Source: Escherichia coli (lineage in GTDB: Bacteria; Pseudomonadota; Gammaproteobacteria; Enterobacterales; Enterobacteriaceae). Taken from it: a stretch of 64,000 nt of DNA. The stretch lies in assembly GCF_003019035.1 (NCBI RefSeq), contig NZ_CP027447.1; one strand, given 5' to 3'. This document shows positions 4,537-60,312 of this stretch, piece by piece. Under the pieces are notes generated by a model. The model searched no databases. It was not told the DNA's origin and saw only the letters and a program-made list of their open reading frames with translations. The first letter of the stretch is position 1. Each line of letters opens with the position of its first letter. Both the position numbers and the translations under genes were made by a program.

Positions 4537-5007
4537 CAGAGAGAGGATTCCATCTGTTACGTAGGTCGAAGGGGATGCGCCTATTTTGTCAGAAGCGGGG
4601 CGCGCTGTCAGGTTTCGTTTCAGATTTATCGCGTGAAGCGACCTCTTGCGAAGGTGAGGCGCACCGTCGCTGAGATTGAAAGCTTCATTTTTCGTCCATG
4701 ATGACGTTGTAAATCTGGAACTGATTTATTTCCTTGTCTAAGGATTAAGATAATTTAAGAAATACCTGACAATATAAAAAGAATTTTCAGCCTGGTAATT
4801 TACCGCTTCAGGTCTATATTTGTGTTGAATATATTTTGCGCGGAAATATTCATCTAACGGGGCTCTCTATTTTTTAGAATAGAGTGCATATTTTCAATTA
4901 AGACATTCTTAGAGGATAAAAAGGAATTTTACTACTATCAGTGTCTTAAATAAAGTAATCGGTTATATACGGATGTGGAGTCGATAAATGAGATTGAAGG
5001 AATATAT

Positions 5008-5550
5008 ATGAAATTAAGATTTATTTCGTCTGCGCTGGCCGCCGCACTATTCGCCGCTACGGGTAGTTATGCTGCCGTTGTAGATGGCGGTACAATTCAC
5101 TTTGAAGGCGAACTGGTGAATGCTGCCTGTTCAGTGAATACTGACTCGGCAGACCAGGTTGTCACACTCGGTCAATATCGTACCGATATTTTCAATGCTG
5201 TTGGTAATACCTCTGCATTAATTCCATTCACTATACAGTTGAACGACTGCGATCCTGTCGTTGCCGCTAATGCTGCCGTTGCATTTTCTGGTCAGGCGGA
5301 TGCAATCAATGATAATTTATTGGCCATTGCATCCAGTACTAATACAACAACAGCAACGGGTGTCGGTATTGAAATACTTGATAATACATCCGCAATTCTC
5401 AAACCTGATGGGAATAGCTTCTCAACCAACCAGAACTTGATCCCCGGGACCAACGTTCTTCATTTTTCTGCACGTTATAAAGGCACCGGTACAAGTGCAT
5501 CAGCAGGGCAAGCAAATGCTGACGCGACTTTTATTATGAGATACGAATAA
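5008..5550 (+). CDS. sfmA: type 1-like fimbrial major subunit SfmA
   Basis: 180-aa product with signal peptide [22 protein letters not shown] and fimbrillin C-terminus; start moved to ATG at 5008. Confidence 0.88.
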
Positions 5551-18676: not shown

Positions 18677-18855
18677 ACAAAAACCTTACATTAACGCTGG
18701 TTATGTTTAGGGTGGCGTATATTAAAGTTTTTTATGAATTGTGACAGCTTTTTATCATTAATAGGTAGGATTATTGCGGCACGTTATTTTTACACTGGTT
18801 ATAAAAGTTGCCGATTGCGTAGAATGTAGACAAAAGCGTGGTGTCAAGGAGGGGA

Positions 18856-20160
18856 GGGTAACGCAGGGAAAGATTACGAAAGCCCGCTCCCCGCAAGGAC
18901 TGACGCCAGATAGTTTCTGTCCATGGCTGCTTTTCGCATCTTACGTCTTAACCCTGCCTTGAATACCTTATCATTCGTCAAAATATTAATAGCGATGTGC
19001 CGTATCCCTGAAAATAATTCTGCTGCATTTCCTCTTCTTATTTTGCAGTCGTCTTCATTCATTACCACGTCCAGACGCCAGTGCAGCTTATTCTCCACGT
19101 GCCAGTGGTTTCGGATTGCTGTGGCGAACTTCTCTGCGGTTAAATCAGCAGAACTGATATAATATCTGACCGTCATTTCGGGCTCTTTCTTTTGTTCTGC
19201 TATTATTGACCGAAAGGAGACTGCCACGCATAATTTCTTCAGACCTTTCCATTCAAACGTGAAATCAATAAGTTCATCAGGGACATCGCAAACAATGTGA
19301 AGACGGATTTCTTCTCTGCCGTGACTCTTTTCACTCATTGCGTAACTGTCATGCTCTGGATTATTTAATTCTTTCAGCGGAAATTTTTCCTCGAAGGCTT
19401 TATTTAGCCGCCCCTGGTTTCCTTTTACAGCGAATAAATAATCACCTCCCTGTTTTTGTATCTTCTCTGCAATATCTTTCTGGCAACCCATCGCATCAGT
19501 TGTGATGATTTTTCCTTTAATATCCAGCATGTTAAGAAGTTCTTGGATAGCTGTAATCTCATTGGATTTCTCATCCGTCCTGATCTGTCCGATGACCAGA
19601 CTATGCATTGTTGAGAACGCACTAATGACATGAATCGCTCCCTTGCGGCGACTCTTGTCATAAGAGTGCCGGAGCGTTTTTCCATCAATTGCAATGACGC
19701 CTTTATCATCTGAAGAATGGCAGTCACGCATCCAGTTAATAAAGCACTCGTGAAATTTTGCAGGACTGATACAGGATACAACTCTGGCAATGGTATCGTG
19801 AACAGGAATACCATTTTCAAAATCACCATATTGCTTCAAAAAATCGAGATGTGTTTCCCCAAAATCCTCTATATCTTCCCAGCCTTCTGCACCAGAAATA
19901 ACGGCACAAATAGTCAACAGTAGAATATCCGACAATTTATGTTCCACTTTCCAGGCTTGTCTGTACTCGGGAATAACAGAAATATGTTCTATCAATTTTT
20001 TAAGTACCATTTTGTTCTCCTTAATTATGTAAGGAGTATTTGATCATGTATAAGCAATAAAAAACAGCTTCAGGTAATGAGGAATATCTCAATTTTTAAA
20101 CATAAAATGCGAATTATTTAGTACAAAAAAGCAGCGTTACGTGATCTTTCCCTGTGTAAT
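18856..20160 (-). mobile_element. H-repeat / ISAs1-family insertion sequence (about 1.3 kb)
   Basis: Contains the 378-aa H-repeat-associated transposase; imperfect terminal inverted repeats centred on CAGGGAAAGAT (18861-18878 versus reverse complement of 20139-20156, 15/17 identical); boundaries approximate to about 5 bp. Confidence 0.75.
18874..20010 (-). CDS. ISAs1-family (H-repeat-associated, YhhI-like) transposase
   Basis: 378-aa [53 protein letters not shown]...; near-identical to the recalled E. coli H-rpt protein family. Confidence 0.9.
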
Positions 20161-20834
20161 CCCCCAGCTAAATCATGAACTTTTTGAGCCATTTTACTTA
20201 ATTCAGGGCAGGCTCCTAAACCTAATGGATCTGTGAAGCAACACGGATTCAGCACATAACCATAAGTGTTTAGTCCACCCAATACACCCAGGGGGTCACT
20301 CACCAGATACATCCCGGTCTCCGGCTCGTAGTACCGGAACCGGTTATAGCACAGCCCTGACTCCGCATCCCGCCACTGCCCCGCATACAGCAGACCGGGG
20401 TCCGCTTCTGCGTCTCGCTCCCCGCGCGGGTCCGGGTAGTCCCTGTCTGCGCTGACGCTGAGTGCCAGCCCCCACAGGCTGGTCTGCTCCGCACGCCACA
20501 CCACGTTACCCTGACTGTTAAAGAGCATCACCGGGCGGCCTGTCAGGTCGCTTACCGCATGGCTGGTCCGCGTCACCCACTGCGGGGCCACGGACGGGTG
20601 CGGCTGCCGTACCCGGCTGAACTGCTGGCTTATCAGCTCAAAGCCGTTAAACACCAGGTACCGCACACTGTACAGTTTATCATCGCGGTATTCCCGGATT
20701 TCCGCAATAGTGTCGCCGTCCCACAGATATGTGATGCGGAGGGCTTTTTGTTTGCAGCGTTTCTCTGTCCGTCTGCCACTGGCGTCGTGGCAGTATTCCC
20801 ACTGCTCACCCCGGGCGCTGCGGTAGCCGATCAC
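20118..20834 (-). pseudogene. orphan rhs C-terminal fragment (last about 206 aa of Rhs core plus a truncated alternative tip)
   Basis: Homologous to residues about 1260-1470 of the upstream Rhs through the PxxxxDPxGL core end (DPLGL); no upstream ORF or canonical start; only about 19 native residues follow DPLGL before the reading frame runs into the IS terminal repeat. Confidence 0.7.
20217..20834. repeat. direct repeat copy 1 (rhs core 3' end, orphan copy)
   Basis: About 620 bp, high-identity copy of 21694-22311 visible in both nucleotide and protein alignment. Confidence 0.75.
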
Positions 20835-20863
20835 GGCTGTCGTGGCGGAACTTTATCTCTTTT

Positions 20864-21253
20864 TTATTTAATCCAGTAAGCTAATCTCTCACCAATCTTC
20901 AAATTTTCTCTTTTGTAATAAAATACAGTATCAAAGTTAATGGATATTTTTTTCGCAATAACTTTGAATTTCAATTCAAATTCCGAATAAAACTCTAATA
21001 CTAACATTTCACGAGCATTGTCAGTGCAACTTGATAGCTTAATAAACTCCTCATTAAGATCGCATGACCAGTCCATAACACCGCTAATATAGCATGGCGT
21101 GTCTATTATTATTTCCAGTGTGTGATAGTAAGAAAGGTCATCACTCCCGGAAATAATCAAGCGATTATGTTCATAAAGAAAAACTGAAAAATCCAACCAA
21201 CTTTCTTTCCAATTATGGTGCTTTATATCATTAATTATGTTTTGCTCACTCAT
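20864..21253 (-). CDS. candidate cognate immunity protein for the Rhs C-terminal toxin
   Basis: 129-aa AT-rich ORF; its ATG overlaps the rhs TGA stop in a 4-bp ATGA overlap; positional analogy to rhsI genes; no family recognised from sequence. Confidence 0.6.
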   Translation of the reverse strand: MSEQNIINDIKHHNWKESWLDFSVFLYEHNRLIISGSDDLSYYHTLEIIIDTPCYISGVMDWSCDLNEEFIKLSSCTDNAREMLVLEFYSEFELKFKVIAKKISINFDTVFYYKRENLKIGERLAYWIK

Positions 21254-24200
21254 GGAATAGTTCCTGTAGGCAATGGTATATGAGTATCATTTGCAGCTCC
21301 TGGATTATAATTCGGACTTTTAGTTTTCAAATCAGATGTATGATGCCAACTGCCATCAGGAGAACCATACTCCCAACCATAGCCTTGATTAGTCGCAGGA
21401 TTTGTTCCACTTTGGCTTCTACCAATCCTATATATGGGGCCATTGGCAGAATTACTCCCTGCTGGAGCAGTAGGGTTTACATCATGAGCCCTTACTTCAT
21501 ATTTATAATTTCCGACGGTGAATTTTTCTTTAAATTTTATAGGGTAGTTATGCCCAGACAAGCCTTGCCGATGTAAAGCATAATTTAACACATCCTGCGG
21601 TGAGGTATTTTTAATTGCTTGATGCGCTTGTGCTGCTGTCATACCTTGAGAACGATTGTATTTATACCAATCATACATCACAGGACATATAGCTAATCCC
21701 AAAGGATCAACATACCCCAGCGGATTAGGCACATACCGGTAAGTCTGCTCACCCCCCAGCAACCCCAGTGGATCACTCACCAGGTACATCCCGGTTTCCG
21801 GCTCGTAATACCGGAACCGGTTATAGCACAGCCCCGATTCCGCATCCTGCCACTGCCCCGCATACAGCAGGCCGGGGTCGGCTTCCGGGTCCAGCTCCCC
21901 GCGCGGGTCCGGGTAGCCGGTGTCTGCGGGCAGGCTGAGTGCCAGCCCCCACAGGCTGGTCTGCCCCGGTCGCCAGACGGTTTTACCTTCACTGTTAAAG
22001 AGCACCAGCGGACGGCCCGTCAGGTCGCTCACCGCATGATTCGTTCGCGTCACCCACTGCGGGGCCACGGACGGATGCGGCTGCCGTACCCGGCTGAACT
22101 GCTGACTCAGCAGCTCAAAGCCGTTAAACACCAGGTGCCGTACGCTGTACAGTTTATCATCCCGGTATTCCCGCATTTCCGCAATACTGTCGCCGTCCCA
22201 CAGATACGTAAAACGGATTTTCTTCCGGTCGCAGCGTTTTTCCGTCCGCCTGCCGCTGGCGTCGTGGCGGTATTCCCACTGCTCACCCTGTGCGCTGCAA
22301 TACCCGGTCAGCTGGTCCCGGCTGTCCCACCGGAACCGCTCTGTTTCCGGGCGGTAGCCGTCACGGTGTCTGGTGCGGCTGACCATCCGGCCTGCGGCGT
22401 CATAGCTGTAGTCTGTGTTTCCGGTCTGTTTCAGCCGGTGGCCGCGCTGATACATGTCAGTATCCACGCTTATCCGGTGCCTGCCCGCCGACTGCGCCTT
22501 CAGGTAGCCACAACTGTCATAGCCATAGGACTCATCGCCTTCGCCATAGCCCAGCCCGGTGCCTGAGGCTGTCACCGCCGTGACCTGGCCGTTCCGGTCC
22601 AGCCGGTACTCCCGCCGTGTTTCCCGTCCGTAGTCTTCCCGGCTGGTGACAGCCGACATATTGCCCGCGCTGTCGTAACGGTACTCCCGCACCAGTGAGG
22701 GGAGCAGTCCGCCCCATGTGGCTTCCGCCGGGAAAAGTCCGGCGCGCTGGCTGGTAAGCTGACCGGCTGCATTCCAGCCCTGCTCACAGGCAAAACCCCG
22801 GTTACTGTGCCGGAGCACTTCACGTCCTGCCTCATCACGGCTGAACGTCAGCGTCTCATCCCCCGGCAGGATAACCTCCGTCAGTTCTCCGGCGGCGTTG
22901 TAGCGGTAGGTGGTTTTCAGCAGGGATTCACCGGGGTGTCTGTCGCGTTCATCTTCCGGTGGCAGGATACAGCGGATGACGGTGTGTTCATCGGGGTGGT
23001 GGTATTCAATGGCCCGTCGGCCCTGAGTGGTGACATTCACCCGCCCGCGTTCGTCATAGCCGGTGCGCTGTGATGTACCGTCCGGGCTGAAGATACCCGT
23101 CAGCCTGCCGGATTTGTCATAGGCATACTGCGTTTTGCCTTCCGGCGAGATGACTTCTGCCAGGCGGCCTGCGGCGTCCCGGCTGTAGAGGATAGTTTCC
23201 TCCAGGCCGTTAACCCTGGCGGTACAAAGGCCATCGGCGTCATAGCGGTAACGCCAGACCACGCCGCCCCAGTCACGCTCTTCCGTCACCCGTCCACAGT
23301 TGTCCAGAATATAACGGTATGACTCGCCCTGCGGATTGATGACTTCTGTCAGTTGCAGCGTGTCTTTATCGTAGCGGTACTGCCAGCGGTGGCCTTCACC
23401 GTCCGTTCGCGCCACCGGCAAATCGAACGGGCCGTATTCCATCGTCCAGACAACGCCGTTGCCGTCCGTCCAGGCCAGCAGGTTGCCGTGGCGGTCATAG
23501 CGAAATCCTTCCGCGCCGGTGCCAGTGCGTTCAAGGCCGCTCAGTTTATGGTGCTGCTGCCACCGTAACCGCACTGACTGACCGCCGGGGCCGCGCATCT
23601 TCACCGGCAGGTCGTGACCGCTGTATTCGGTGTGGTGTTCACGGCCCATCACGTCGGTGAGTGTTTCCGGCCGGTTGTGGTGGTCGTACTCTATGCCCAG
23701 ACGCCGTTCATCCTGGCGGAATATCCCCGACAGCAGCCCCTGCGGCGTGTACGCCAGCCGGGTCTCTTCGCCCTGTGGCGACACCAGACTTACCGGCAGG
23801 CCGCGTTCATCACACTGCTGCGTCCACATCTGCCCGGCAGGGTCGGTGATGTTGCTGAGCAGGCCGCGCTCATCATAGCAGTACTGCCACTCCGCACCGT
23901 CTGCCGCCGTGTAACGGCTTAACTGACCGTGTGCGGCGTTGTATTCAAACTTCTCCACCCGCCCGGCAGGGGAGTGGCGGGCCAGCAGGTGATGGAATTC
24001 ATCCCATTCATACATGGTGGTGCTGCCGTCCGGCGCTGCTTCCCGCAGAATATTGCCGTCAGGATCATAGTAATAACGGTGAATGCCCTTGCCGTCCGTC
24101 ACGGTGGTGCAGCCGTCACCATAGTCCAGCGTGGCGTTGTAATAGCCCTCCGCCCCGGTGACGGTCACGCACCGGCCCTGTGCATCGTAGGTGAAACGGC

Positions 24201-26103
24201 TCCACGTCTGGTCGTTATCGGACCAGCGGATGATCCGGTCCGCAGCGTCGTACTCATAAAACAGGTGGTAGTCCAGCCGCGCATCCGCTTCTGTCAGCCG
24301 CCCCCGCGCATCCTGTTCGTAGGTCGCCAGCATCTGTATGCCGTTATCCGTACGGTGAATGGCTTTCAGGTAGCCGCTGGCATGGTACGTCAGTTTAAGC
24401 CGGATCCCGTCGGTGTGACTGACACCCATGATGCGGTACTGGCTGTCGCGCTCAAACGTGATGCGGTTGCTGGCGGTGTCGCTCATCCCGCCCAGCATGT
24501 ACATCCGGTCTGCGGGGCTGTGTGCCAGACGGTCATCGCAGGTATCGTCAGTCACCGGGTGGCGCAGGCGCATTCCCGGAAAGGCGTCATAAAAGAAGCG
24601 GCTGCTCAGTGCATCACGGTCGAACAGCTCCAGGTAATCGTCGCGGCGGCGCAGAATGTACTGGGCGTGATACGGGTTAACCGCCGTATCACTGTCACCG
24701 TCGAAGGCAAATCTCAGCGTGGTTCCCTGGCTGATGATATCCACCCGGTTTCCCTGTTCACGCACCCAGGCGTATTCGCTCCAGGAGTCGCTCCAGCCCA
24801 CGCCCGTCAGACCATGCAGCGGCAGTACAGAACTGTGGAAACGGGTGAAGGAGAGGGGGAGTGTCTGGCCCAGCGTAAAGTCGGTACGTTCGTCGCAGTA
24901 TGCGCCGGTTACCGGATCGACAGGATCTGTTACCCATCTGATGACTTTATTGGCAATACTTTTTAACGACTTACCTGTTTTCCCCAGCAACGCGCCGAGC
25001 TTTGCCCCCAGCAGCTTCCCGCTTTTCCCCAGCAGGTTTCCCAGTTTGCCGAGTTTCGCCAGATTCCCCAGTTTTCCCAGCAGTCCCGCGGGCGGCAGAA
25101 GATAGCTGGCTATCGTTATTCCCCCCAGGATCATTCTCTGCCACGGCGGGAACTCCGGCTGGATATCCAGATAGGTCACCTGTTCACCGCCAATAAAGAC
25201 GTCCGGCGAACCTTCCACGATTGCCGCGCTGCACTCCAGTTTGTCCCCTTTGCGTGCGGCAGTCTGATTGTTGATAAAGACGTTGCTGCTGCCCTGGGCT
25301 ATCCTCGGTGGTTTGTTCTCCTTGTCGCAGAGCGCCGTGTCCTCACCGGCTTCCGGGAAATCCACGTCTTTTTTGATTTCGCCACGCCCGCCCACCATGG
25401 TGGCAAACTCCATTAATACCGGACCGGCGGGAAACAGAAGCGATGCGCCGGCGCTGACGCGATCCATAATACCGGCATTGCTGTCCGTCAGGGTGATAAC
25501 AGCGTTCCCCCAGGCCTTCGCCAGTGGTACTGCTTTTTCCGCTGCCGATTCAAGCAGGTCAGTGGCAATATCACCCCATGAGGGTTCCCCCTGTGGTGGA
25601 GAGGGTATTGCTTCAGTCAGGGGAGGAGGGGGAAGGGTGACGGCGGCCCTGGCAGCGGGCTTTCCGTTAATGTTTACATTTTTAGAACCAGTATTGATGG
25701 CCCCGTCCGTGTCACAAAAACTGTTTATCCATGATTCAAGCTGGTTCTGTTTCTCCTCCACATAATCACTCGCCTTATAGCTGGCATACATCAGCGCAGG
25801 CACCAGAACCAGCGCATAAGGGCCGGTGGCACAGGCGGCCATAATCAGGCAACCTTCTGCGATGGTCACTATCGCCCCCAGCACGGCCCCTGCCAGCGCC
25901 CCCAAAAAACTCTTGTGCTGAATTTCATCGCCCAGCCTGGCTGCGGGGGGGCCAGACTTTTTTGATGCCAACATCTGTGCAATGGCTTTGTCGTTGGCTG
26001 CCCGTTTCATCTGGCTGGCGACCATCGCCTGCTGTGACAGCATTCGCATTGCCAGCGTACCGCCTGCGGTCGCTCCCTGTGGCCCGCCTGGTCCTTCACT
26101 CAT
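21250..26103 (-). CDS. rhs: prePAAR/PAAR-domain Rhs-family polymorphic toxin (T6SS effector) with variable C-terminal toxin tip
   Basis: 1617-aa ORF: N-terminal AARLGDEIQH (prePAAR-like AARxxDxxxH), hydrophobic helices, PAAR-like segment (ARKGDKLECSAAIVEGSPDVFIGG), long YD/Rhs repeat region, core terminating at DPLGL, then a 147-aa low-GC tip. Confidence 0.9.
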   Translation of the reverse strand: MSEGPGGPQGATAGGTLAMRMLSQQAMVASQMKRAANDKAIAQMLASKKSGPPAARLGDEIQHKSFLGALAGAVLGAIVTIAEGCLIMAACATGPYALVLVPALMYASYKASDYVEEKQNQLESWINSFCDTDGAINTGSKNVNINGKPAARAAVTLPPPPLTEAIPSPPQGEPSWGDIATDLLESAAEKAVPLAKAWGNAVITLTDSNAGIMDRVSAGASLLFPAGPVLMEFATMVGGRGEIKKDVDFPEAGEDTALCDKENKPPRIAQGSSNVFINNQTAARKGDKLECSAAIVEGSPDVFIGGEQVTYLDIQPEFPPWQRMILGGITIASYLLPPAGLLGKLGNLAKLGKLGNLLGKSGKLLGAKLGALLGKTGKSLKSIANKVIRWVTDPVDPVTGAYCDERTDFTLGQTLPLSFTRFHSSVLPLHGLTGVGWSDSWSEYAWVREQGNRVDIISQGTTLRFAFDGDSDTAVNPYHAQYILRRRDDYLELFDRDALSSRFFYDAFPGMRLRHPVTDDTCDDRLAHSPADRMYMLGGMSDTASNRITFERDSQYRIMGVSHTDGIRLKLTYHASGYLKAIHRTDNGIQMLATYEQDARGRLTEADARLDYHLFYEYDAADRIIRWSDNDQTWSRFTYDAQGRCVTVTGAEGYYNATLDYGDGCTTVTDGKGIHRYYYDPDGNILREAAPDGSTTMYEWDEFHHLLARHSPAGRVEKFEYNAAHGQLSRYTAADGAEWQYCYDERGLLSNITDPAGQMWTQQCDERGLPVSLVSPQGEETRLAYTPQGLLSGIFRQDERRLGIEYDHHNRPETLTDVMGREHHTEYSGHDLPVKMRGPGGQSVRLRWQQHHKLSGLERTGTGAEGFRYDRHGNLLAWTDGNGVVWTMEYGPFDLPVARTDGEGHRWQYRYDKDTLQLTEVINPQGESYRYILDNCGRVTEERDWGGVVWRYRYDADGLCTARVNGLEETILYSRDAAGRLAEVISPEGKTQYAYDKSGRLTGIFSPDGTSQRTGYDERGRVNVTTQGRRAIEYHHPDEHTVIRCILPPEDERDRHPGESLLKTTYRYNAAGELTEVILPGDETLTFSRDEAGREVLRHSNRGFACEQGWNAAGQLTSQRAGLFPAEATWGGLLPSLVREYRYDSAGNMSAVTSREDYGRETRREYRLDRNGQVTAVTASGTGLGYGEGDESYGYDSCGYLKAQSAGRHRISVDTDMYQRGHRLKQTGNTDYSYDAAGRMVSRTRHRDGYRPETERFRWDSRDQLTGYCSAQGEQWEYRHDASGRRTEKRCDRKKIRFTYLWDGDSIAEMREYRDDKLYSVRHLVFNGFELLSQQFSRVRQPHPSVAPQWVTRTNHAVSDLTGRPLVLFNSEGKTVWRPGQTSLWGLALSLPADTGYPDPRGELDPEADPGLLYAGQWQDAESGLCYNRFRYYEPETGMYLVSDPLGLLGGEQTYRYVPNPLGYVDPLGLAICPVMYDWYKYNRSQGMTAAQAHQAIKNTSPQDVLNYALHRQGLSGHNYPIKFKEKFTVGNYKYEVRAHDVNPTAPAGSNSANGPIYRIGRSQSGTNPATNQGYGWEYGSPDGSWHHTSDLKTKSPNYNPGAANDTHIPLPTGTIP
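21253..21693 (-). other. Rhs C-terminal toxin domain (147 aa after DPLGL); candidate WHH/HNH-type nuclease
   Basis: Abrupt drop in GC content after the DPLGL junction; motif GSWHHTSD...NYNPGAAN...THIP near the C-terminus resembles the His-His...Asn...His arrangement of HNH/EndoVII-fold toxin domains. Confidence 0.45.
21694..22311. repeat. direct repeat copy 2 (rhs core 3' end, main gene)
   Basis: Homologous to 20217-20834; substrate for homologous recombination that would swap toxin tips. Confidence 0.75.
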
Positions 26104-26122
26104 GTGTTATCCCTCGTTTATG

Positions 26123-26584
26123 TCAGCGCGGCTGGTCCTTTTGGATGTCATTCTCCGGTGGCAACGGGGTGAAGCTCTTTATCACCTCCAGCAGCATCGT
26201 CTTTTGACTGTTCTTCAGGGATAAGGAGGTGCTGAAAGTGAAGGTCAGCAGCGTATCTCCACGCCGCTGGAATACGGCTATCTGGCTAATCCGCCCCTGA
26301 TTCCCTTCATCTTCCGGACCGTTCCAGGAATAATCCAGCAGCCAGGCCGGGGCCTCTGCCAGAGTGATTTCCCGGCAGGCATGTTCGGTGTACCCATCAA
26401 GTTTGCCCTGGTACAGCGCCAGCGTTTCCTGGTACAGCTCTGGTGTCAGGGTTCCCTGTGGAACGGCTTCGCGGGTAATGACCAGGTTGATGCCACTGTT
26501 ATCTGTGGACACCAGGACCTGCATTGACTGATCCTGCCATTGAGACGGCAGTTGAATGTGGCCTTCATTAAAAGTGAACTGCAT
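26123..26584 (-). CDS. DUF1795 / Eag-family effector-associated chaperone
   Basis: 153-aa ORF between vgrG and the prePAAR-Rhs gene, tightly spaced; size and position typical of EagR-type chaperones. Confidence 0.75.
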   Translation of the reverse strand: MQFTFNEGHIQLPSQWQDQSMQVLVSTDNSGINLVITREAVPQGTLTPELYQETLALYQGKLDGYTEHACREITLAEAPAWLLDYSWNGPEDEGNQGRISQIAVFQRRGDTLLTFTFSTSLSLKNSQKTMLLEVIKSFTPLPPENDIQKDQPR

Positions 26585-26611
26585 AAAATACTCCCTGTTA
26601 ATCTGAGTGAA

Positions 26612-28513
26612 TCAGTTGATGAAAACAGAACCGCCCACGATGGTGATGCCATCCTTCGACAGCCTGATTACCGTCGATTCCCCGACCTGTAGCTGTATGC
26701 CATCCGGCGTCAGCGCAATTTTGCTTTCCTCCACGGCCAGCAAAATTTCCTTAATCGCCGTATAAGCCTGTATACCGTCGCCTTCGCCACCATTGTTTAC
26801 AGCGTCAACATGCACCGAACCGGCAATCGTGCCTCTGTCCTGAAAGACATCCTCAGATAAAGACCCTTTCAGTACTCCGGTGATCTTGTGGCCTTTTTCC
26901 ACCGTAAGAAGGCGGTTACCTTCCTGGATCGTGACCGTCTGGTCATTTTTTACGGTTTCGCGGTGATCGTGTTTTACGGTGGTGGTACGGTCGTTGAGCA
27001 CTTCGGTATCCATGTTCTTCTGCGCGTGGATGTAGACCTGTTCTCTCCCTGTCGCATCATCAAACTTCAGCTCATTAAATCCGCTGCCCATGTACGTTTT
27101 GGAGCGGATGGTCATCTGCGTCTTTGTTCCCGGCAGGCTGCCGGGGGTGCGGTTTTCCTGGTGGTAGGTGCGCCCCATAATGATCGGCTGGTCCGGATCG
27201 CCGTTGAGGAAGTCTACAATCACTTCCTGACCCACACGCGGTATCGCCAGGTGGCCAAAACCGGTGCCTGCCCACGCCTGTGCCACACGGATCCAGCACG
27301 AACTGTCTTGGTCTGCCGGGTTATAACGGTCCCAGTTGAACTTCACCCGCACGCGACCATGTTCGTCGCAGAAGATTTCCTCGCCTGCCGGTCCTGTCAC
27401 GACAGCGCTCTGCGGGCCGTCGACCAGCGGTTTCAGCAACGGCTGTGGTCGCCATGTTCTGTCTGCCGGGATCACCGCAAAATGGTTCTCCAGCGCCGTC
27501 CCCGCTCCCTGCCGTCCTGGCACCGCCTGTGGCTGTTCGCCGTGCAGTTCACTTGCCACCACCTGCCATTCCCGGTTCAGGTTCGCCTGCGGATGCCCCG
27601 TCAGCACAATTCGTCGTCCCGGCCATATCTCCGGCGAGCGACTCATTCCCCGCGCGGTTTCTGCATTGTTTCGCCAGCCGTCCATCTGCCAGCGGGCAAA
27701 GTTCTGCCCGTGGGCACCCTTGAAACGTCCGGGGTAGTCATACACTTCATACTGCGTGCGCTGGTAGTCCTGGTGCTGGCCTTCCTGTTCAAAACGTCCG
27801 GCCCAGCCGGGGCGTTTAAAGGTGTAGTCTTTGGTCACCACGGAAGAAGGGCGGATTTGTGCGCTGTAGCGGAACTGGCTGATGCAGAGGGTGCTCACCT
27901 CGGTACGGGTGTTCGGGTTCCATGGGATTTCAAAAGATTCGGGCAGATGGCGGACTGTGTCGCACAGCACCAGGCTCTGGTCGGTACTTTTGTAAGCATG
28001 CTCCTCATAAAAGAAGATGCCTTCCTCCGCCGCCATCCGGCACAGGAAATCGTAATCAGTCTCACCGTACTGGACACAAAACTCACGGGAAGGATGCGGC
28101 TCGCTGAACAGCGGACTCCATTCGGTCACCCCGTTTTCCTGCAACATCGTGCCGAGGATGCTTTTGATGTCCTCGTTCTGGAAGATACGGAAGTTCTGGC
28201 GCAGACCGGCACGCCACAGCGGCGGGTGCACCTTCATGCTGTACAGCATCTGGTTTTTGTCGTTCTCCCCCAGTTCAAACCAGGTCACCACGCCTTTCAC
28301 CCGGCGCTGTACTTCATCGCCCTGCCATATCGTCAGGTAGGCCATTTTGTCCAGCACCTGCGCAAATTCAAGGGAGAGAAACTGCTGGCTGACCAGGGAG
28401 AGATCGAGGGAAAAGAGCGAAGAGAGTGACTGGTTCAGATGAAAGGAAACCACCGCAAAAGCATCCGGCGGCAGGCCGTCCACTTCCAGTGTGAAACGTA
28501 ATCCGGTTGACAT
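26612..28513 (-). CDS. vgrG: type VI secretion spike protein VgrG
   Basis: 633-aa ORF starting MSTGLRFTLEVDGLPPDAF... with gp27/gp5-like regions and a C-terminal beta-helix-like segment; canonical VgrG N-terminus. Confidence 0.9.
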   Translation of the reverse strand: MSTGLRFTLEVDGLPPDAFAVVSFHLNQSLSSLFSLDLSLVSQQFLSLEFAQVLDKMAYLTIWQGDEVQRRVKGVVTWFELGENDKNQMLYSMKVHPPLWRAGLRQNFRIFQNEDIKSILGTMLQENGVTEWSPLFSEPHPSREFCVQYGETDYDFLCRMAAEEGIFFYEEHAYKSTDQSLVLCDTVRHLPESFEIPWNPNTRTEVSTLCISQFRYSAQIRPSSVVTKDYTFKRPGWAGRFEQEGQHQDYQRTQYEVYDYPGRFKGAHGQNFARWQMDGWRNNAETARGMSRSPEIWPGRRIVLTGHPQANLNREWQVVASELHGEQPQAVPGRQGAGTALENHFAVIPADRTWRPQPLLKPLVDGPQSAVVTGPAGEEIFCDEHGRVRVKFNWDRYNPADQDSSCWIRVAQAWAGTGFGHLAIPRVGQEVIVDFLNGDPDQPIIMGRTYHQENRTPGSLPGTKTQMTIRSKTYMGSGFNELKFDDATGREQVYIHAQKNMDTEVLNDRTTTVKHDHRETVKNDQTVTIQEGNRLLTVEKGHKITGVLKGSLSEDVFQDRGTIAGSVHVDAVNNGGEGDGIQAYTAIKEILLAVEESKIALTPDGIQLQVGESTVIRLSKDGITIVGGSVFIN

Positions 28514-29249
28514 AGCAACCTCCAGTAAAATGAATAATGATCCGTACCGTACAACTGCGGATAATGTGATAAGCGGGACGACTTCAGACGTTATTAGGGA
28601 AGGAACAGAAAATGCTATGGTTATGTGAGAATTTTGTTTAAATATTACTTTACAGAAACGGGTGTCTGTTCAGTCAAAAAAATAATCACAAGCTCAACCT
28701 CTTGTTTCTTGGCGTTATTCAGGACAGGTACGCATATCACAACGAGTAACAAAAACGCAAAGTTAAACCAATATTCATAATATATTTTTATTCACAGCAA
28801 TAAATAATCCAATTAACATTATTAAAATGAATGATTGCATAAGAAATATATGCTACCGCTCCACCCTGATAACATGATCTGCACATTGCACATCTTAACG
28901 TTGTTAAATACTGGCTCAATAGTGGATATTTTAAATTAGGAATTTATCAAATTCACTTGATAAATAGATTGAGTGAATAATATAACAATTAATGATGATT
29001 AATCGCGATTAAATTATTCATTGCTTTATATGATAGATGGCTTGTTTATAACGATGAAAATTTAGAAAGGGCATTGTGATCTACAATTGGAAGAAACACA
29101 GATTTAACTAAGTTTCATATACAAACATCTCGTGAAACTTTGAAAAATAAAAGCCTTCGATATTTCATATGTTTAATAAGTTTTTCTCTAATTTGTTGAT
29201 CAACAATACCAGGAGGTGATGCACCACGCCCTGAATTTGAACTTAATAA

Positions 29250-55626: not shown

Positions 55627-56627
55627 GCACCACCTCGCGTTTTACGTCGCACGAGGAAGATCAGCACCGGTGCACCAATAAACGCACTGACCACAGAAAC
55701 GCGCAGCTCGCCGGGCACAATCACCCGCCCGATGATATCGGCAAACAGCAGCAGGGCAGGGGTAGCAAGTAGCGTGACGGGCAGCGACCAGCGATGATCG
55801 GCACCCACCAGCCAGCGCGCCATATGCGGCATCATCAGGCCAATAAAGGCAATCGGGCCAACTACCGCCGTCGCACTACCACAAAGCACGGTAATCGCCA
55901 GCAGGCCAATTAACTGCGTCCGTGCCACGCGACTACCCAGCGCCGTCGCGGTGTCGCTGCCGAGGCTTAAACTATTCAGCGCGCGGCTCAGTAATAGCGC
56001 GGTTGCTCCGGCGATCAGCACTGGGATCAGCACCACTTTTAAGGTGTGCAGATTACGAATATCCAGCGAACCGGCTTGCCAGAAACGCAACTGATCGTAG
56101 ACGTCAGGGTTGAGCAGGGCGATGCCGCTGGTCAGCCCTTCAAGCACCGCCGCCAGCGCCACGCCCGCCAGGGTTAAACGCACCGGACTTAACTGCCCGC
56201 CGCCCTGGCTGCCGGTAAAGGCAACAATCAACGAGGCCACCAGCGCCCCGGCGAAGGCCATCGCCAGTTGTTCCTGCGCGGATGAGTAACCAAACAGCGC
56301 AGCACCCAGCACAATGGCAAAGCTGGCTCCGGCGTTCACACCAAGCAAGCCGGGGTCGGCAAGTGGGTTTCGGGTGAGGGTTTGCATCAACGCCCCGGCA
56401 AGGCCAAGCGCACCGCCGGCCAGTAAACCGGCAAGGGTGCGCGGCAGTCGCGCGTCGAGCACGATGGTGCAGTCGGCGCTCTGGCAGGTGCCGGAGAGGG
56501 CCTCCAGCACTACGGAAGCGGGGAGTGATTTTGCCCCAATGAGCAGGCTTAATGCCGTCGCGATAATCAGTAATAACAGCAATCCGGGCACGGCAATGGC
56601 GCGTGTCACGGCAACAGAACCAGACAT
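55623..56627 (-). CDS. fepD: ferric enterobactin ABC transporter permease FepD
   Basis: 334-aa product from MSGSVAVTRAIAVPGLLLL... Confidence 0.92.
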   Translation of the reverse strand: MSGSVAVTRAIAVPGLLLLLIIATALSLLIGAKSLPASVVLEALSGTCQSADCTIVLDARLPRTLAGLLAGGALGLAGALMQTLTRNPLADPGLLGVNAGASFAIVLGAALFGYSSAQEQLAMAFAGALVASLIVAFTGSQGGGQLSPVRLTLAGVALAAVLEGLTSGIALLNPDVYDQLRFWQAGSLDIRNLHTLKVVLIPVLIAGATALLLSRALNSLSLGSDTATALGSRVARTQLIGLLAITVLCGSATAVVGPIAFIGLMMPHMARWLVGADHRWSLPVTLLATPALLLFADIIGRVIVPGELRVSVVSAFIGAPVLIFLVRRKTRGGA

Positions 56628-56639
56628 ACGAACTTCCAT

Positions 56640-56665
56640 GATAATGAAATTAATTATCGTTATCG
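56640..56665. promoter_or_regulatory. Fur-box-like operator in the fepD-entS divergent region
   Basis: gataatgaaattaattatcgttatc resembles the Fur consensus. Confidence 0.5.
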
Positions 56666-56737
56666 ATCTTATTTGGATATGTTAGCATGTGCAGCCCAAG
56701 AATAGGTATTTAAAATATTTGATGGCAAGGCATTGTA

Positions 56738-57988
56738 ATGAATAAACAATCCTGGCTGCTTAACCTCAGCCTGTTGAAAACGCACCCGGCGTTTCGCGCA
56801 GTATTCCTCGCTCGTTTTATCTCAATTGTGTCTCTGGGCTTGCTCGGCGTCGCGGTGCCGGTGCAGATCCAGATGATGACGCATTCTACCTGGCAGGTGG
56901 GGCTTTCGGTGACGCTGACCGGCGGCGCGATGTTTGTTGGCCTGATGGTCGGCGGTGTGCTGGCGGATCGCTATGAACGCAAAAAAGTGATTTTGCTGGC
57001 GCGCGGCACCTGTGGCATTGGCTTCATTGGACTGTGCCTGAACGCGCTGCTGCCGGAGCCGTCATTGCTGGCAATCTATTTACTTGGTTTATGGGATGGT
57101 TTTTTCGCATCGCTTGGCGTTACGGCGCTACTGGCGGCGACACCTGCACTGGTAGGGCGTGAAAACTTAATGCAGGCCGGGGCGATCACCATGTTGACCG
57201 TGCGTCTGGGATCGGTGATTTCGCCCATGATTGGCGGTTTATTGCTGGCGACCGGAGGCGTAGCCTGGAACTACGGACTGGCGGCGGCGGGCACGTTTAT
57301 TACCTTGCTACCGTTGTTAAGCCTTCCGGCGTTGCCACCACCGCCGCAGCCGCGTGAGCATCCGTTGAAATCATTACTGGCAGGATTTCGTTTTCTACTC
57401 GCCAGCCCGCTGGTGGGAGGGATTGCGTTGCTGGGTGGTTTATTGACGATGGCGAGCGCGGTGCGGGTCCTGTATCCGGCGATGGCTGACAACTGGCAGA
57501 TGTCGGCGGCACAGATTGGTTTTCTCTATGCGGCGATTCCGCTCGGCGCGGCTATTGGCGCGTTAACCAGCGGGAAGCTGGCACATAGCGCGCGACCAGG
57601 GTTATTGATGCTGCTCTCCACGCTGGGATCGTTCCTCGCCATTGGTCTGTTTGGCCTGATGCCGATGTGGATTTTAGGCGTGGTTTGTCTGGCGCTGTTC
57701 GGCTGGCTGAGCGCGGTCAGCTCACTGCTGCAATATACAATGCTGCAAACGCAAACCCCGGAAGCGATGTTAGGGCGGATTAACGGTTTGTGGACGGCGC
57801 AAAACGTGACGGGCGATGCCATAGGCGCGGCGCTGCTGGGCGGTTTGGGAGCGATGATGACACCGGTTGCTTCCGCAAGCGCGAGCGGTTTTGGTTTGTT
57901 GATTATCGGCGTGTTGTTATTGCTGGTGCTGGTGGAGTTGCGACGTTTTCGCCAGACGCCGCCGCAGATGACAGCGTCCGACAGTTAA
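56738..57988 (+). CDS. entS: enterobactin exporter EntS (MFS)
   Basis: 416-aa 12-[35 protein letters not shown]... Confidence 0.93.
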
Positions 57989-57991
57989 TGC

Positions 57992-58948
57992 TTAAAACAG
58001 CGCCTTAAGTCGTTCCAGCACTTGCATGGCGCTGTAGTAATCCAGGCGGAACGTCTCGGTTCCCAGCGCATAAACCTGCTTGTTTTGTACTGCAGGCAGG
58101 TGCGCGAGCAGTGGATTGGCATAAATCGCATCGGCATCTTTCTGATCACCAGCGAACAGGAATAGTGAATCGCCATTTAACCCTGCAGCCAGATTTTCTC
58201 CACCAAGCTGAATGATGTCATGGCGTTTGCCCTGGCTTTGGCTGGCGTTTAACCCTGCGGGCAATTTCGCCAACGTAAAGCCGAGTTGTTCCAGCATCTG
58301 CCCTTGTGCTGATTCCGGCGTCCAGAGATTGGCACTGTGTGCAGCGGCGGTATAGACAATGGCAGTGACCGGCTGCGGCGGTAATTTGATTTGCTCTTTC
58401 GCCGCCGCCAGTTGCTTATCAAACTGCGCAATCCGCTCTGCCGCTTGTTTCTCATGCCCGGTAATTTCGCCAAGCTGCGTTAACAGCGACTGCCAGCTTT
58501 TGTCGTCGTAATTGATGATTAATGTTGGGGCGATGGTAGAAAGCTGATCGTACAGCGCCAGCGCCGAATCCCCGCCGGTTGCGCTAATTAAAATCAGATC
58601 CGGCATTTGCGCGGCAACGGCTTCTGCACTCGGTTCGCCGATATAGAGCCGTTGCAGTTTGCGTTCTTTCGCCACCTTGCTCCACTGGCGTAAAAAGCCC
58701 TGGTCATCCGCGACGCGGTTATTTGGCGTGGTCGCGCCGCTGGCGATCACCGGAGCATCAATCGCCAGCAGTGAGCCGGTCAGGGTGACGCTGGTGGAAA
58801 CTATACGCTGCGGCTGGCTTTCCAGGGTATGAGTGCCACGGCTGTCAGTAATCTGACGCGGCCAGTCGGCGGCCTGAACTGCGGCTATTCCTGAAAGCAA
58901 AAGTCCTGTTAATAGAAGGGCGTTGCGGTAGAGCGGGGCGAGTCTCAC
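57992..58948 (-). CDS. fepB: periplasmic ferric enterobactin-binding protein FepB
   Basis: 318-aa ORF with signal peptide [26 protein letters not shown]. Confidence 0.93.
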
Positions 58949-59088
58949 AAGTCAGCTTCCTGTTATTAATGAAGTTAATGCTTCTCATTTTCATTGTAAC
59001 CACAAACAGATGCAACCCCGAGTTGCAGATTGCGTTATCTCAAGAGTTGACATAGTGCGCGTTTGCTTTTAGGTTAGCGACCGAAAAT

Positions 59089-59107
59089 ATAAATGATAAT
59101 CATTATT
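59089..59107. promoter_or_regulatory. Fur box in the fepB-entC divergent promoter
   Basis: ATAAATGATAATCATTATT matches 15 of 19 positions of GATAATGATAATCATTATC, about 30 bp upstream of the entC start. Confidence 0.75.
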
Positions 59108-59136
59108 AAAGCCTTTATCATTTTGTGGAGGATGAT

Positions 59137-60312
<1,176 letters not shown>

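Follow-up and report, generated by a model that had tools for sequence, protein, structure and literature searches.

A sharp compositional and homology breakpoint at the core/tip junction of an Escherichia coli rhs gene

The rhs locus and its core/tip junction

A 64-kb stretch of Escherichia coli DNA (contig NZ_CP027447.1 of RefSeq assembly GCF_003019035.1, hereafter the window) carries an rhs gene whose conserved, GC-rich core gives way abruptly, at a DPLGL motif, to an AT-rich C-terminal tip. Read along the minus strand, the gene order is vgrG, eagR, the gene for a putative prePAAR/PAAR-Rhs protein (the main rhs gene), an open reading frame (ORF) of 129 amino acids, an orphan rhs remnant, the insertion sequence (IS) ISEc1 and then nfrB and nfrA (RefSeq annotation was taken from the record of E. 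coli FDAARGOS_497, which is 100% identical to the window over 20000–22500). Because the rhs gene is on the minus strand, its core occupies the higher window coordinates and its tip the lower ones. The main rhs gene (21250..26103) encodes 1,617 amino acids, from a probable prePAAR/transmembrane/PAAR N-terminus to an Ntox30 tip, and was characterized with Pfam and NCBIfam: the protein matches RHS_repeat in 10 stretches (E 7.7e-76), TIGR01643 (E 2.8e-68), DUF6531, PAAR_motif (E 1.4e-14; 54.5 bits against a cutoff of 27) and, at its C-terminus, Ntox30 (E 1.3e-10), and hydrophobic stretches are seen in the translation at residues ∼66–110. Directly upstream, by both Pfam and RefSeq annotation, are the eag (DUF1795/DcrB) gene for an EagR-type chaperone (26123..26584; Pfam DcrB, E 1.4e-27; RefSeq DcrB-related protein) and the operon's first gene, vgrG, which encodes the spike of a type VI secretion system (T6SS) (26612..28513; Pfam Phage_GPD, E 7.8e-75, Gp5_trimer_C and Phage_base_V; RefSeq VgrG).

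The last part of the conserved core is an Rhs-associated core domain (TIGR03696, E 2.4e-18; residues 1409–1470, 21694..21879; GC content 0.55–0.77), the match to which covers profile positions 14–76 of 76, the model stopping exactly at the last leucine of a DPLGL motif. Two such motifs occur in the protein at a spacing of 17 residues: the first at residues 1444–1448 (21760..21774) and the second at residues 1466–1470 (21694..21708), where it completes a PxxxxDPxGL motif (residues 1461–1470, 21694..21723) and is followed immediately by an alanine. By sequence analogy with the Rhs aspartyl autoprotease, an autoproteolytic cut is predicted between L1470 (21694–21696) and A1471 (21691–21693). A first-pass annotation, made from the letters of the window, had placed the DPLGL codons at about 21686–21715, a range within which the second motif does lie, and had described a sharp compositional break there.

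That break is readily recovered. A two-segment maximum-likelihood fit places the GC change point at 21715, which divides a tip/immunity segment with a GC content of 0.36 from a core segment with one of 0.63 (twice the log-likelihood difference, 152), and a sliding-window profile shows a clear discontinuity at the junction, 60-nucleotide windows ranging from 0.22 to 0.50 over 20860–21700 and from 0.55 to 0.77 over 21700–22000; the annotation was thus correct that the core is GC-rich and that the sequence stays AT-rich through the immunity ORF. Overall GC content is 0.62 in the core, 0.40 in the tip and 0.315 in the immunity ORF, against 0.52 for the window. Three of the four largest 300-nucleotide GC steps in the window are edges of the rhs region (20273, 20849 and 21790), and a step as large as that at 21709 occurs at just 0.7% of window positions. 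At third codon positions, the final 300 codons of the core have a GC content of 0.74, as compared with 0.245 for the tip, 0.333 for the immunity ORF and 0.583 ± 0.07 for 27 background ORFs of the window, whereas at second positions it is the same on both sides of the junction (0.49 versus 0.48). With the window's own genes as reference, the tip has a codon adaptation index of 0.515 and the immunity ORF one of 0.544, values that fall under the minimum of the 27 background ORFs (0.553), whereas the core, at 0.67, stands at the background mean (0.669). Core and tip are both compositionally atypical for E. coli.

The variable tip (residues 1471–1617, 147 amino acids; 21253..21693) consists of a segment of ∼45 amino acids with three helices, followed by Ntox30 (PF15532; residues 1527–1612, 41.8 bits against a cutoff of 25). 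Ntox30 was predicted to be a metal-independent RNase and is listed with an RxH/R/THIP signature (Zhang et al. 2012, Biol Direct 7:18, PMC3482391), the residues of which are present in the tip (RxH at R68 and H70, R89/R92 and THIP at 137–140); the tip is a predicted RNase of this kind. In an alignment of 50 relatives, R68 and R92 are invariant and H70, R89, T137, H138 and I139 are kept in at least 90%. An AlphaFold2 model of the tip built with these relatives (predicted local distance difference test score 92.5) has three N-terminal helices and then a mainly beta domain. We know of no solved structural relative of Ntox30. The first 28 residues of the tip (21610–21693) are 43% identical to the start of the otherwise unrelated tip of strain LY180 (L005:6408–6491), whose immunity partner is an Imm26 protein; the resemblance suggests a short pre-toxin helix common to both tips.

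The putative immunity gene (20864..21253, 129 amino acids) overlaps the rhs stop codon by four nucleotides (ATGA), and its product matched no Pfam or NCBIfam family. Its position and the fact that a partner of 129–134 amino acids covaries with the toxin across two other taxa point to a role as the immunity protein. Among the E. coli genomes searched (see below), a more sensitive blastn search found a 70%-identical copy of the immunity gene, without the Ntox30 toxin, in 13. In one of them, PT62, this homologue of 129 amino acids (L017:4949–5338; 56% amino acid identity, E 2e-53) is encoded between yncG and yddH, a site that corresponds to the rhsE region of K-12; it lies within a 3-kb AT-rich array (GC content 0.31) of small ORFs devoid of Rhs remnants, possibly a stand-alone immunity island.

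Beyond the immunity ORF, the GC content goes up again at 20849, the edge of an orphan rhs core fragment (20217..20833) that is homologous to 21694–22310 of the main gene (repeat search and blastn) and is annotated in RefSeq as part of a partial pseudogene (20834–20118). The homology amounts to ∼590 nucleotides in all, reaching 20833, and includes an ungapped 300-nucleotide match at 83% identity (20244–20543 against 21721–22020; repeat search), which bears out the earlier statement that the core is repeated in the orphan copy. The break in this pair is, however, not exactly at DPLGL: identity fades over the last 90 core nucleotides (77%, 63% and 57% per 30-nucleotide bin), placing it 13–90 nucleotides before the motif. 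The orphan core ends in a divergent ...NPCCFTDPLGL and is followed by ∼20 codons of what would be a displaced tip (GACPELSKMAQKVHDLAGGL; 20155..20216), after which the orphan ORF reads into ISEc1. This element (18863..20154, 1,292 nucleotides; ISAs1 family, the “H-repeat”) has a transposase ORF at 20010–18874 (Pfam DDE_Tnp_1 and DDE_Tnp_1_assoc) and imperfect terminal inverted repeats at 18853–18888 and 20130–20165; the homology that contains it starts at 20154 and runs for its full length to 18863, at 97.8% identity to locus L003 of strain Cn5.

The tip stub of the orphan, searched for with a query that stopped at the IS boundary, is present in 82 complete genomes. At each of the four loci inspected (the window, L001, L002 and L012) it directly adjoins ISEc1, and no full-length orphan tip was found among them. 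The main tip of Cn5 is the same, but the orphan array of that strain, with three units, is intact; there, ISEc1 adjoins a different truncated rhs fragment (L003:10859–11327), which suggests IS-adjacent deletions. The orphan of the window, being a remnant that keeps no immunity gene, is therefore not a usable silent cassette; it is a non-functional stub.

Tip exchange and the separate history of the cassette

To follow the junction through the species, we searched 5,426 complete E. coli genomes (megablast) with a 701-nucleotide query spanning it and read the hit ends from 60 matches spread evenly over the ranking. The query is matched in 2,339 genomes and is present in whole in 120. Among the 60 matches listed, those that lack the tip stop at 21722–21682 (query 379–419), that is, between 28 nucleotides before and 12 nucleotides after the last DPLGL nucleotide. 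The tip and immunity ORF are found in exactly those 120 genomes, always as a single copy and at 99% identity or more, and the immunity ORF accompanies the tip in 120 of 120. Neither has a second copy within the window, such that the sequence past the junction is unique in the sense that the first-pass annotation had claimed.

Comparison of nine further loci from one chromosomal site (cusS-vgrG-eagR-rhs-...-ISEc1-nfrB) reveals what takes the place of the tip in other strains. The cores of the main genes at the cusS–nfrB site, and of the orphans examined, close with ...YRYVPNPxxxxDPxGL, after which comes, depending on the strain, either the Ntox30 tip or one of at least six other, unrelated tips. 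At each junction examined, main and orphan, the GC content drops from 0.60–0.64 to 0.34–0.41. With the motif as anchor, the loci are 87–100% identical to the window in DNA up to 30 nucleotides before it and 63–90% identical in the last 30 nucleotides; past the motif the figure is 7–67%, mostly 13–45%, which is the chance level. A zincin tip serves as the main tip in L006 and occupies an orphan position in L005 and L007, and for this tip the last 30 core nucleotides covary with the tip. The Ntox30 tip stands under the main rhs gene in all 40 records listed and in the four loci examined. Two loci considered as cases of an Ntox30 tip in orphan position were rejected, as H74 has the same main and orphan arrangement as the window and H160 is the same locus with assembly frameshifts. 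L016 (21EVA) and L011 (Ecol_AZ147) are degraded versions of the cusS–nfrB rhs locus; 21EVA has lost everything from a point within vgrG to ∼76 nucleotides before the rhs core end, and ISEc1 is preceded there only by this core end, a stub of a tip and two small ORFs.

The toxin and its partner also travel together outside of E. coli. In a contig from Citrobacter sedlakii (L013), DNA identity to the window (80.9%, blastn) is limited to 21709–20861, from the first DPLGL codon to 3 nucleotides past the immunity stop, and this inter-genus homology defines the extent of the exchangeable cassette (20861..21709). The C. sedlakii core end is only 59% identical over the 75 nucleotides before the cassette, whereas the downstream ORF encodes a protein 78% identical to the immunity protein beside a toxin of 83% identity. 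A second contig, L014, encodes a toxin of 63% and a partner of 53% identity after a different, AT-richer core end. The occurrence of one toxin/immunity family on such clearly different core ends points to older, cross-clade transfer. At the core/tip junction of the Rhs fragment with the Ntox30 homologue in L014 there is exactly placed a perfect 39-nucleotide tandem duplication (L014:448–525), which encodes YVHCPTGWIDPFG; in the orphan of that contig, the motif sequence occurs just once. The duplication may be a scar left by recombination or, the contig being a 2.7-kb draft, an artefact of assembly.

A separate history is also visible within E. coli, between the window and Cn5, which have the same tip. 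The two differ at 78 of 1,500 core positions, three of which are among the four final nucleotides of the DPLGL codons, as against just 6 of 830 positions in the tip and immunity ORF (Fisher p = 9e-10), identity being 95.9% in the core, 99.55% in the tip and 98.97% in the immunity ORF, and the switch in divergence lies between −1 and +87 of the junction. The flanks of the two loci are closer to one another (nfrB 97.4%, vgrG 98.95% and eagR 99.8%) than are their rhs cores (95.9%; window 21694–26103 against L003:2998–7407). The core mismatches are clustered (e.g., −1064 to −966 and −796 to −713 from the junction), a pattern consistent with gene conversion from paralogous rhs cores.

Across a wider range of proteins, an exhaustive search of cluster representatives yielded 181 that match the Ntox30 toxin, nearly always at the extreme C-terminus; they include long RHS proteins of several architectures, PT-HINT proteins and one DUF4280 (PAAR-like) protein. 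A large protein-word search for the tip returned just 12 short relatives. Two other candidates, P0014 and P0015, which Pfam identifies as giant MBG_2-repeat substrates of type IX secretion systems, were rejected as tip relatives, their 15–21 weak stretches against residues 14–64 being summed spurious matches.

The rhs locus as a whole is accessory. In K-12 MG1655 (L015), nfrB and cusS are adjacent, with 149 nucleotides between them, and the block from vgrG to ISEc1 (∼18863–29200) is not there, such that the whole block is an accessory island of ∼10 kb. GC steps occur at 28507, at 29209 and near 18863, of which the last two are the island borders. Further large GC steps in the window, at ∼4670–5030, ∼10620, ∼52430, ∼56530–56780 and ∼58910–59240, probably mark other accessory segments. 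A scan for promoters and terminators over 20000–22000 gave seven promoter-like sites against 3.5 ± 1.8 expected, none of them convincing.

Interpretation and alternative explanations

The breakpoint very probably falls where two modules of a polymorphic effector of type VI secretion meet. The core side (above 21708) would be a GC-rich scaffold, in which prePAAR and PAAR mount the protein on VgrG, the YD repeats form a shell and an aspartyl protease serves as a plug; the tip side (21693–20864) would be an AT-rich cassette of an Ntox30 toxin and a translationally coupled immunity gene. The Rhs protein most likely cuts itself between L1470 and A1471, whereby everything before the cut would be delivery machinery, kept similar among rhs genes, and everything after it cargo that fits inside the shell. 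As the TIGR03696 domain ends at residue 1470 and the predicted cut falls at the same residue, the recombinational and proteolytic boundaries would coincide. We infer both the delivery of Rhs by the T6SS and the recombination pathway, in which an incoming cassette (a tip and an immunity gene preceded by some core sequence) would recombine with the resident gene via the common core, install the new tip and push the old one downstream as an orphan (C-terminal displacement), in this case to be cut later by ISEc1. Because exchange would run through the common core, homology between alleles would end at the DPLGL codons and the cassette would keep its own base composition. Replacement of the tip as a module, with a history apart from that of the core, is supported by four independent tests.

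The first-pass annotation had read the junction as tip replacement by recombination at the conserved core end. Modular replacement is supported by the six or more other tips at the same site, but the crossovers themselves appear to lie within the core homology: orphan core fragments vary in length (∼135 nucleotides in L004, ∼620 nucleotides in the window and ∼2 kb in LY180) and the zincin tip covaries with the last 30 core nucleotides, which together imply that exchange takes place inside the core and that DPLGL is the limit of homology and not necessarily the crossover site. The annotation had also taken the composition to support a foreign origin of the toxin/immunity pair relative to the core. 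The histories of the two parts are indeed separate, as C. sedlakii and Cn5 attest; however, all of the tips examined are AT-rich (0.34–0.41), and low GC content is therefore a property of the cassette pool that identifies no donor. With these two amendments, its observation is confirmed as accurate and its interpretation is the accepted one.

Several points weigh against this interpretation. The AT-richness common to all tips may partly reflect a shared property or selection, not the composition of a donor. The prePAAR_I match of the main Rhs protein (Pfam, 22.4 bits, E 1.5e-4) is below the cutoff of 25. In the 120 E. coli genomes that carry it, the Ntox30 tip was never seen as an orphan; what has been demonstrated is thus displacement at the locus and of a different tip, and not the arrival of the Ntox30 tip itself. 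Finally, no donor was found and the cassette is not in the plasmid or phage collections searched, the tip search matching just two distant Streptomyces proteins of type VII secretion systems (T7SSs) in the former and nothing in the latter.

Three other explanations of the breakpoint can be weighed against the same data. That the junction is an ordinary edge of a genomic island or an IS, unrelated to Rhs modularity, would fit with the absence of the whole vgrG–rhs–ISEc1 block from K-12 and with the IS nearby, but its probability is close to negligible: the step falls at a conserved protein motif within one continuous frame of 1,617 codons and is seen again at all of the junctions examined, those of main and orphan genes alike, whereas the true island borders are elsewhere and ISEc1 ends 1.5 kb away, at 20154. 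It is also exceedingly improbable that the tip has always been with its core and diverged in situ as a hypervariable region under diversifying selection, its low GC content resulting from amino acid or expression constraints. A common selective or mutational cause is conceivable given that every tip at the locus is AT-rich, and the 43% identity of the first 28 residues to an otherwise different tip could be read in the same way. The drop is, however, strongest at synonymous third positions while second positions hold steady; different tips fall to chance identity within a few nucleotides, with no gradient; and members of this one tip family are attached to unrelated core clades as well as to other scaffolds. 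The tip is, moreover, highly conserved, both across the 120 genomes and in Citrobacter (81% DNA identity), and between the window and Cn5 the core beside it has diverged ∼7 times as much.

Site-specific or microhomology-directed exchange, in which the DPLGL-coding sequence would itself be the recombination site, in the manner of an attachment site, would account for a Citrobacter-common cassette that starts exactly at the DPLGL codons and ends 3 nucleotides after the immunity stop, for the position of the divergence switch between two strains, for the same tip family on core clades too different for homologous recombination and for the perfect duplication of the motif at the junction of one contig. 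We nevertheless regard it as very unlikely, as the orphan core fragments of three different lengths are the footprint of crossovers inside core homology, the zincin covariation implies crossovers upstream of the motif, and no recombinase is associated with the cassette (ISEc1 encodes a DDE transposase and is at the far end of the array); the duplication, for its part, may be an artefact of draft assembly, and gene conversion among paralogous cores accounts for the sharp switch equally well. Two origins can be considered for the switch between Cn5 and the window: conversion between paralogous rhs cores, with tracts extending as far as the sequences are homologous, or, with lower probability, a preference for joining at the motif. 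A further proposal, that the 15–30 nucleotides encoding PxxxxDPxGL are a preferred joining point (as microhomology or as the endpoint of conversion tracts) by which cassettes could pass between Rhs core clades whose divergence is too great for ordinary homologous recombination, is unlikely as well; if true, it would explain the start of the Citrobacter cassette, the switch from 5% to 0.7% divergence in the last codon of the motif in Cn5 and the 39-nucleotide duplication. Exchange of tip and immunity gene as a module, through crossovers in the common core, accordingly remains the reading that we favor.

Comparison with known Rhs and related systems

Read as a module boundary, the junction illustrates the means by which strains of E. 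coli vary their contact-dependent weapons: a single conserved delivery shell takes interchangeable toxin/immunity cassettes, and this determines which strains are able to kill or resist one another. For the window itself, the value of the analysis is one of annotation: the bounds of the cassette (21709–20861), the predicted cut at L1470/A1471 and the recognition of the orphan as a dead stub. The partner of the Ntox30 toxin, with its 129 amino acids, belongs to no described family.

Recombination involving rhs orphans of Salmonella has reportedly been worked on by Koskiniemi and colleagues. The main and orphan rhs genes of Salmonella Typhimurium (PMC7043789) resemble those of the window in that a full-length, T6SS-linked rhs gene is accompanied by an orphan with homology to the core end that allows recombination; the Salmonella orphan, however, is intact and functional and has its own immunity gene, whereas that of the window has ∼20 tip codons and no immunity gene. 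A similar logic governs the CdiA-CT/CdiI system (VENN motif; PMC3150448), in which a conserved delivery part precedes a variable toxin demarcated by a short motif, the immunity gene is directly downstream and orphan modules carry a piece of the conserved region, and PxxxxDPxGL has been described as sharply demarcating the variable Rhs-CT in the same way (Poole et al. 2011, PMC3150448). CdiA differs from the system described here in its type V two-partner secretion, its motif and its lack of an encapsulating shell and of autoproteolysis.

The predicted cut has its closest precedents in class I prePAAR T6SS effectors with an Eag chaperone. In Rhs1/Tre23 of Photorhabdus laumondii, the second aspartate is catalytic, the protein is cleaved behind a pair of DPLGL motifs spaced by 17 residues and the first residue of the toxin is an alanine (PMC8636562), and in RhsA of P. 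protegens the PxxxxDPxGL motif is needed for autoproteolysis and release of the toxin (PMC8765631). These effectors have in common with the window the gene order vgrG-eagR-rhs-rhsI, a PAAR domain, a YD shell and two DPLGL motifs followed by alanine. They differ in that the Tre23 toxin is an ADP-ribosyltransferase where the window has Ntox30 and in that the prePAAR match here is below threshold. As for the toxin, the Ntox30 family (PMC3482391; PF15532) is found, as here, at the C-terminus of RHS-, T6SS- and T7SS-type proteins, and its signature residues are kept in the window; Zhang et al. (2012) listed no immunity family for it, whereas a conserved partner of 129–134 amino acids is found here.

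The phenomenon as such is already known and has been a textbook feature since 2009, when the model of C-terminal displacement, with distinct GC signatures of core and tip, was set out (Jackson, Thomas, Parkhill & Thomson 2009, BMC Genomics 10:584, PMC2935791). As in the window, the Rhs elements described there have a GC-rich core, an AT-rich tip demarcated by PxxxxDPxGL and a small downstream ORF; orphan units of core fragment and tip follow downstream, with an H-repeat (ISEc1) at the end of the array; and different tips occupy one position across strains, the tips themselves being conserved and not hypervariable. Two points of detail set the systems apart: exchange was described as limited to cores of one clade (PMC2935791), whereas the same toxin/immunity family is found here on different core ends, and an episomal pool of cassettes was postulated (Jackson et al. 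2009), whereas the cassette of the window was not seen in the plasmid and phage collections. Nothing essential, however, differs between the locus described here and the Rhs system of Jackson et al. (2009).

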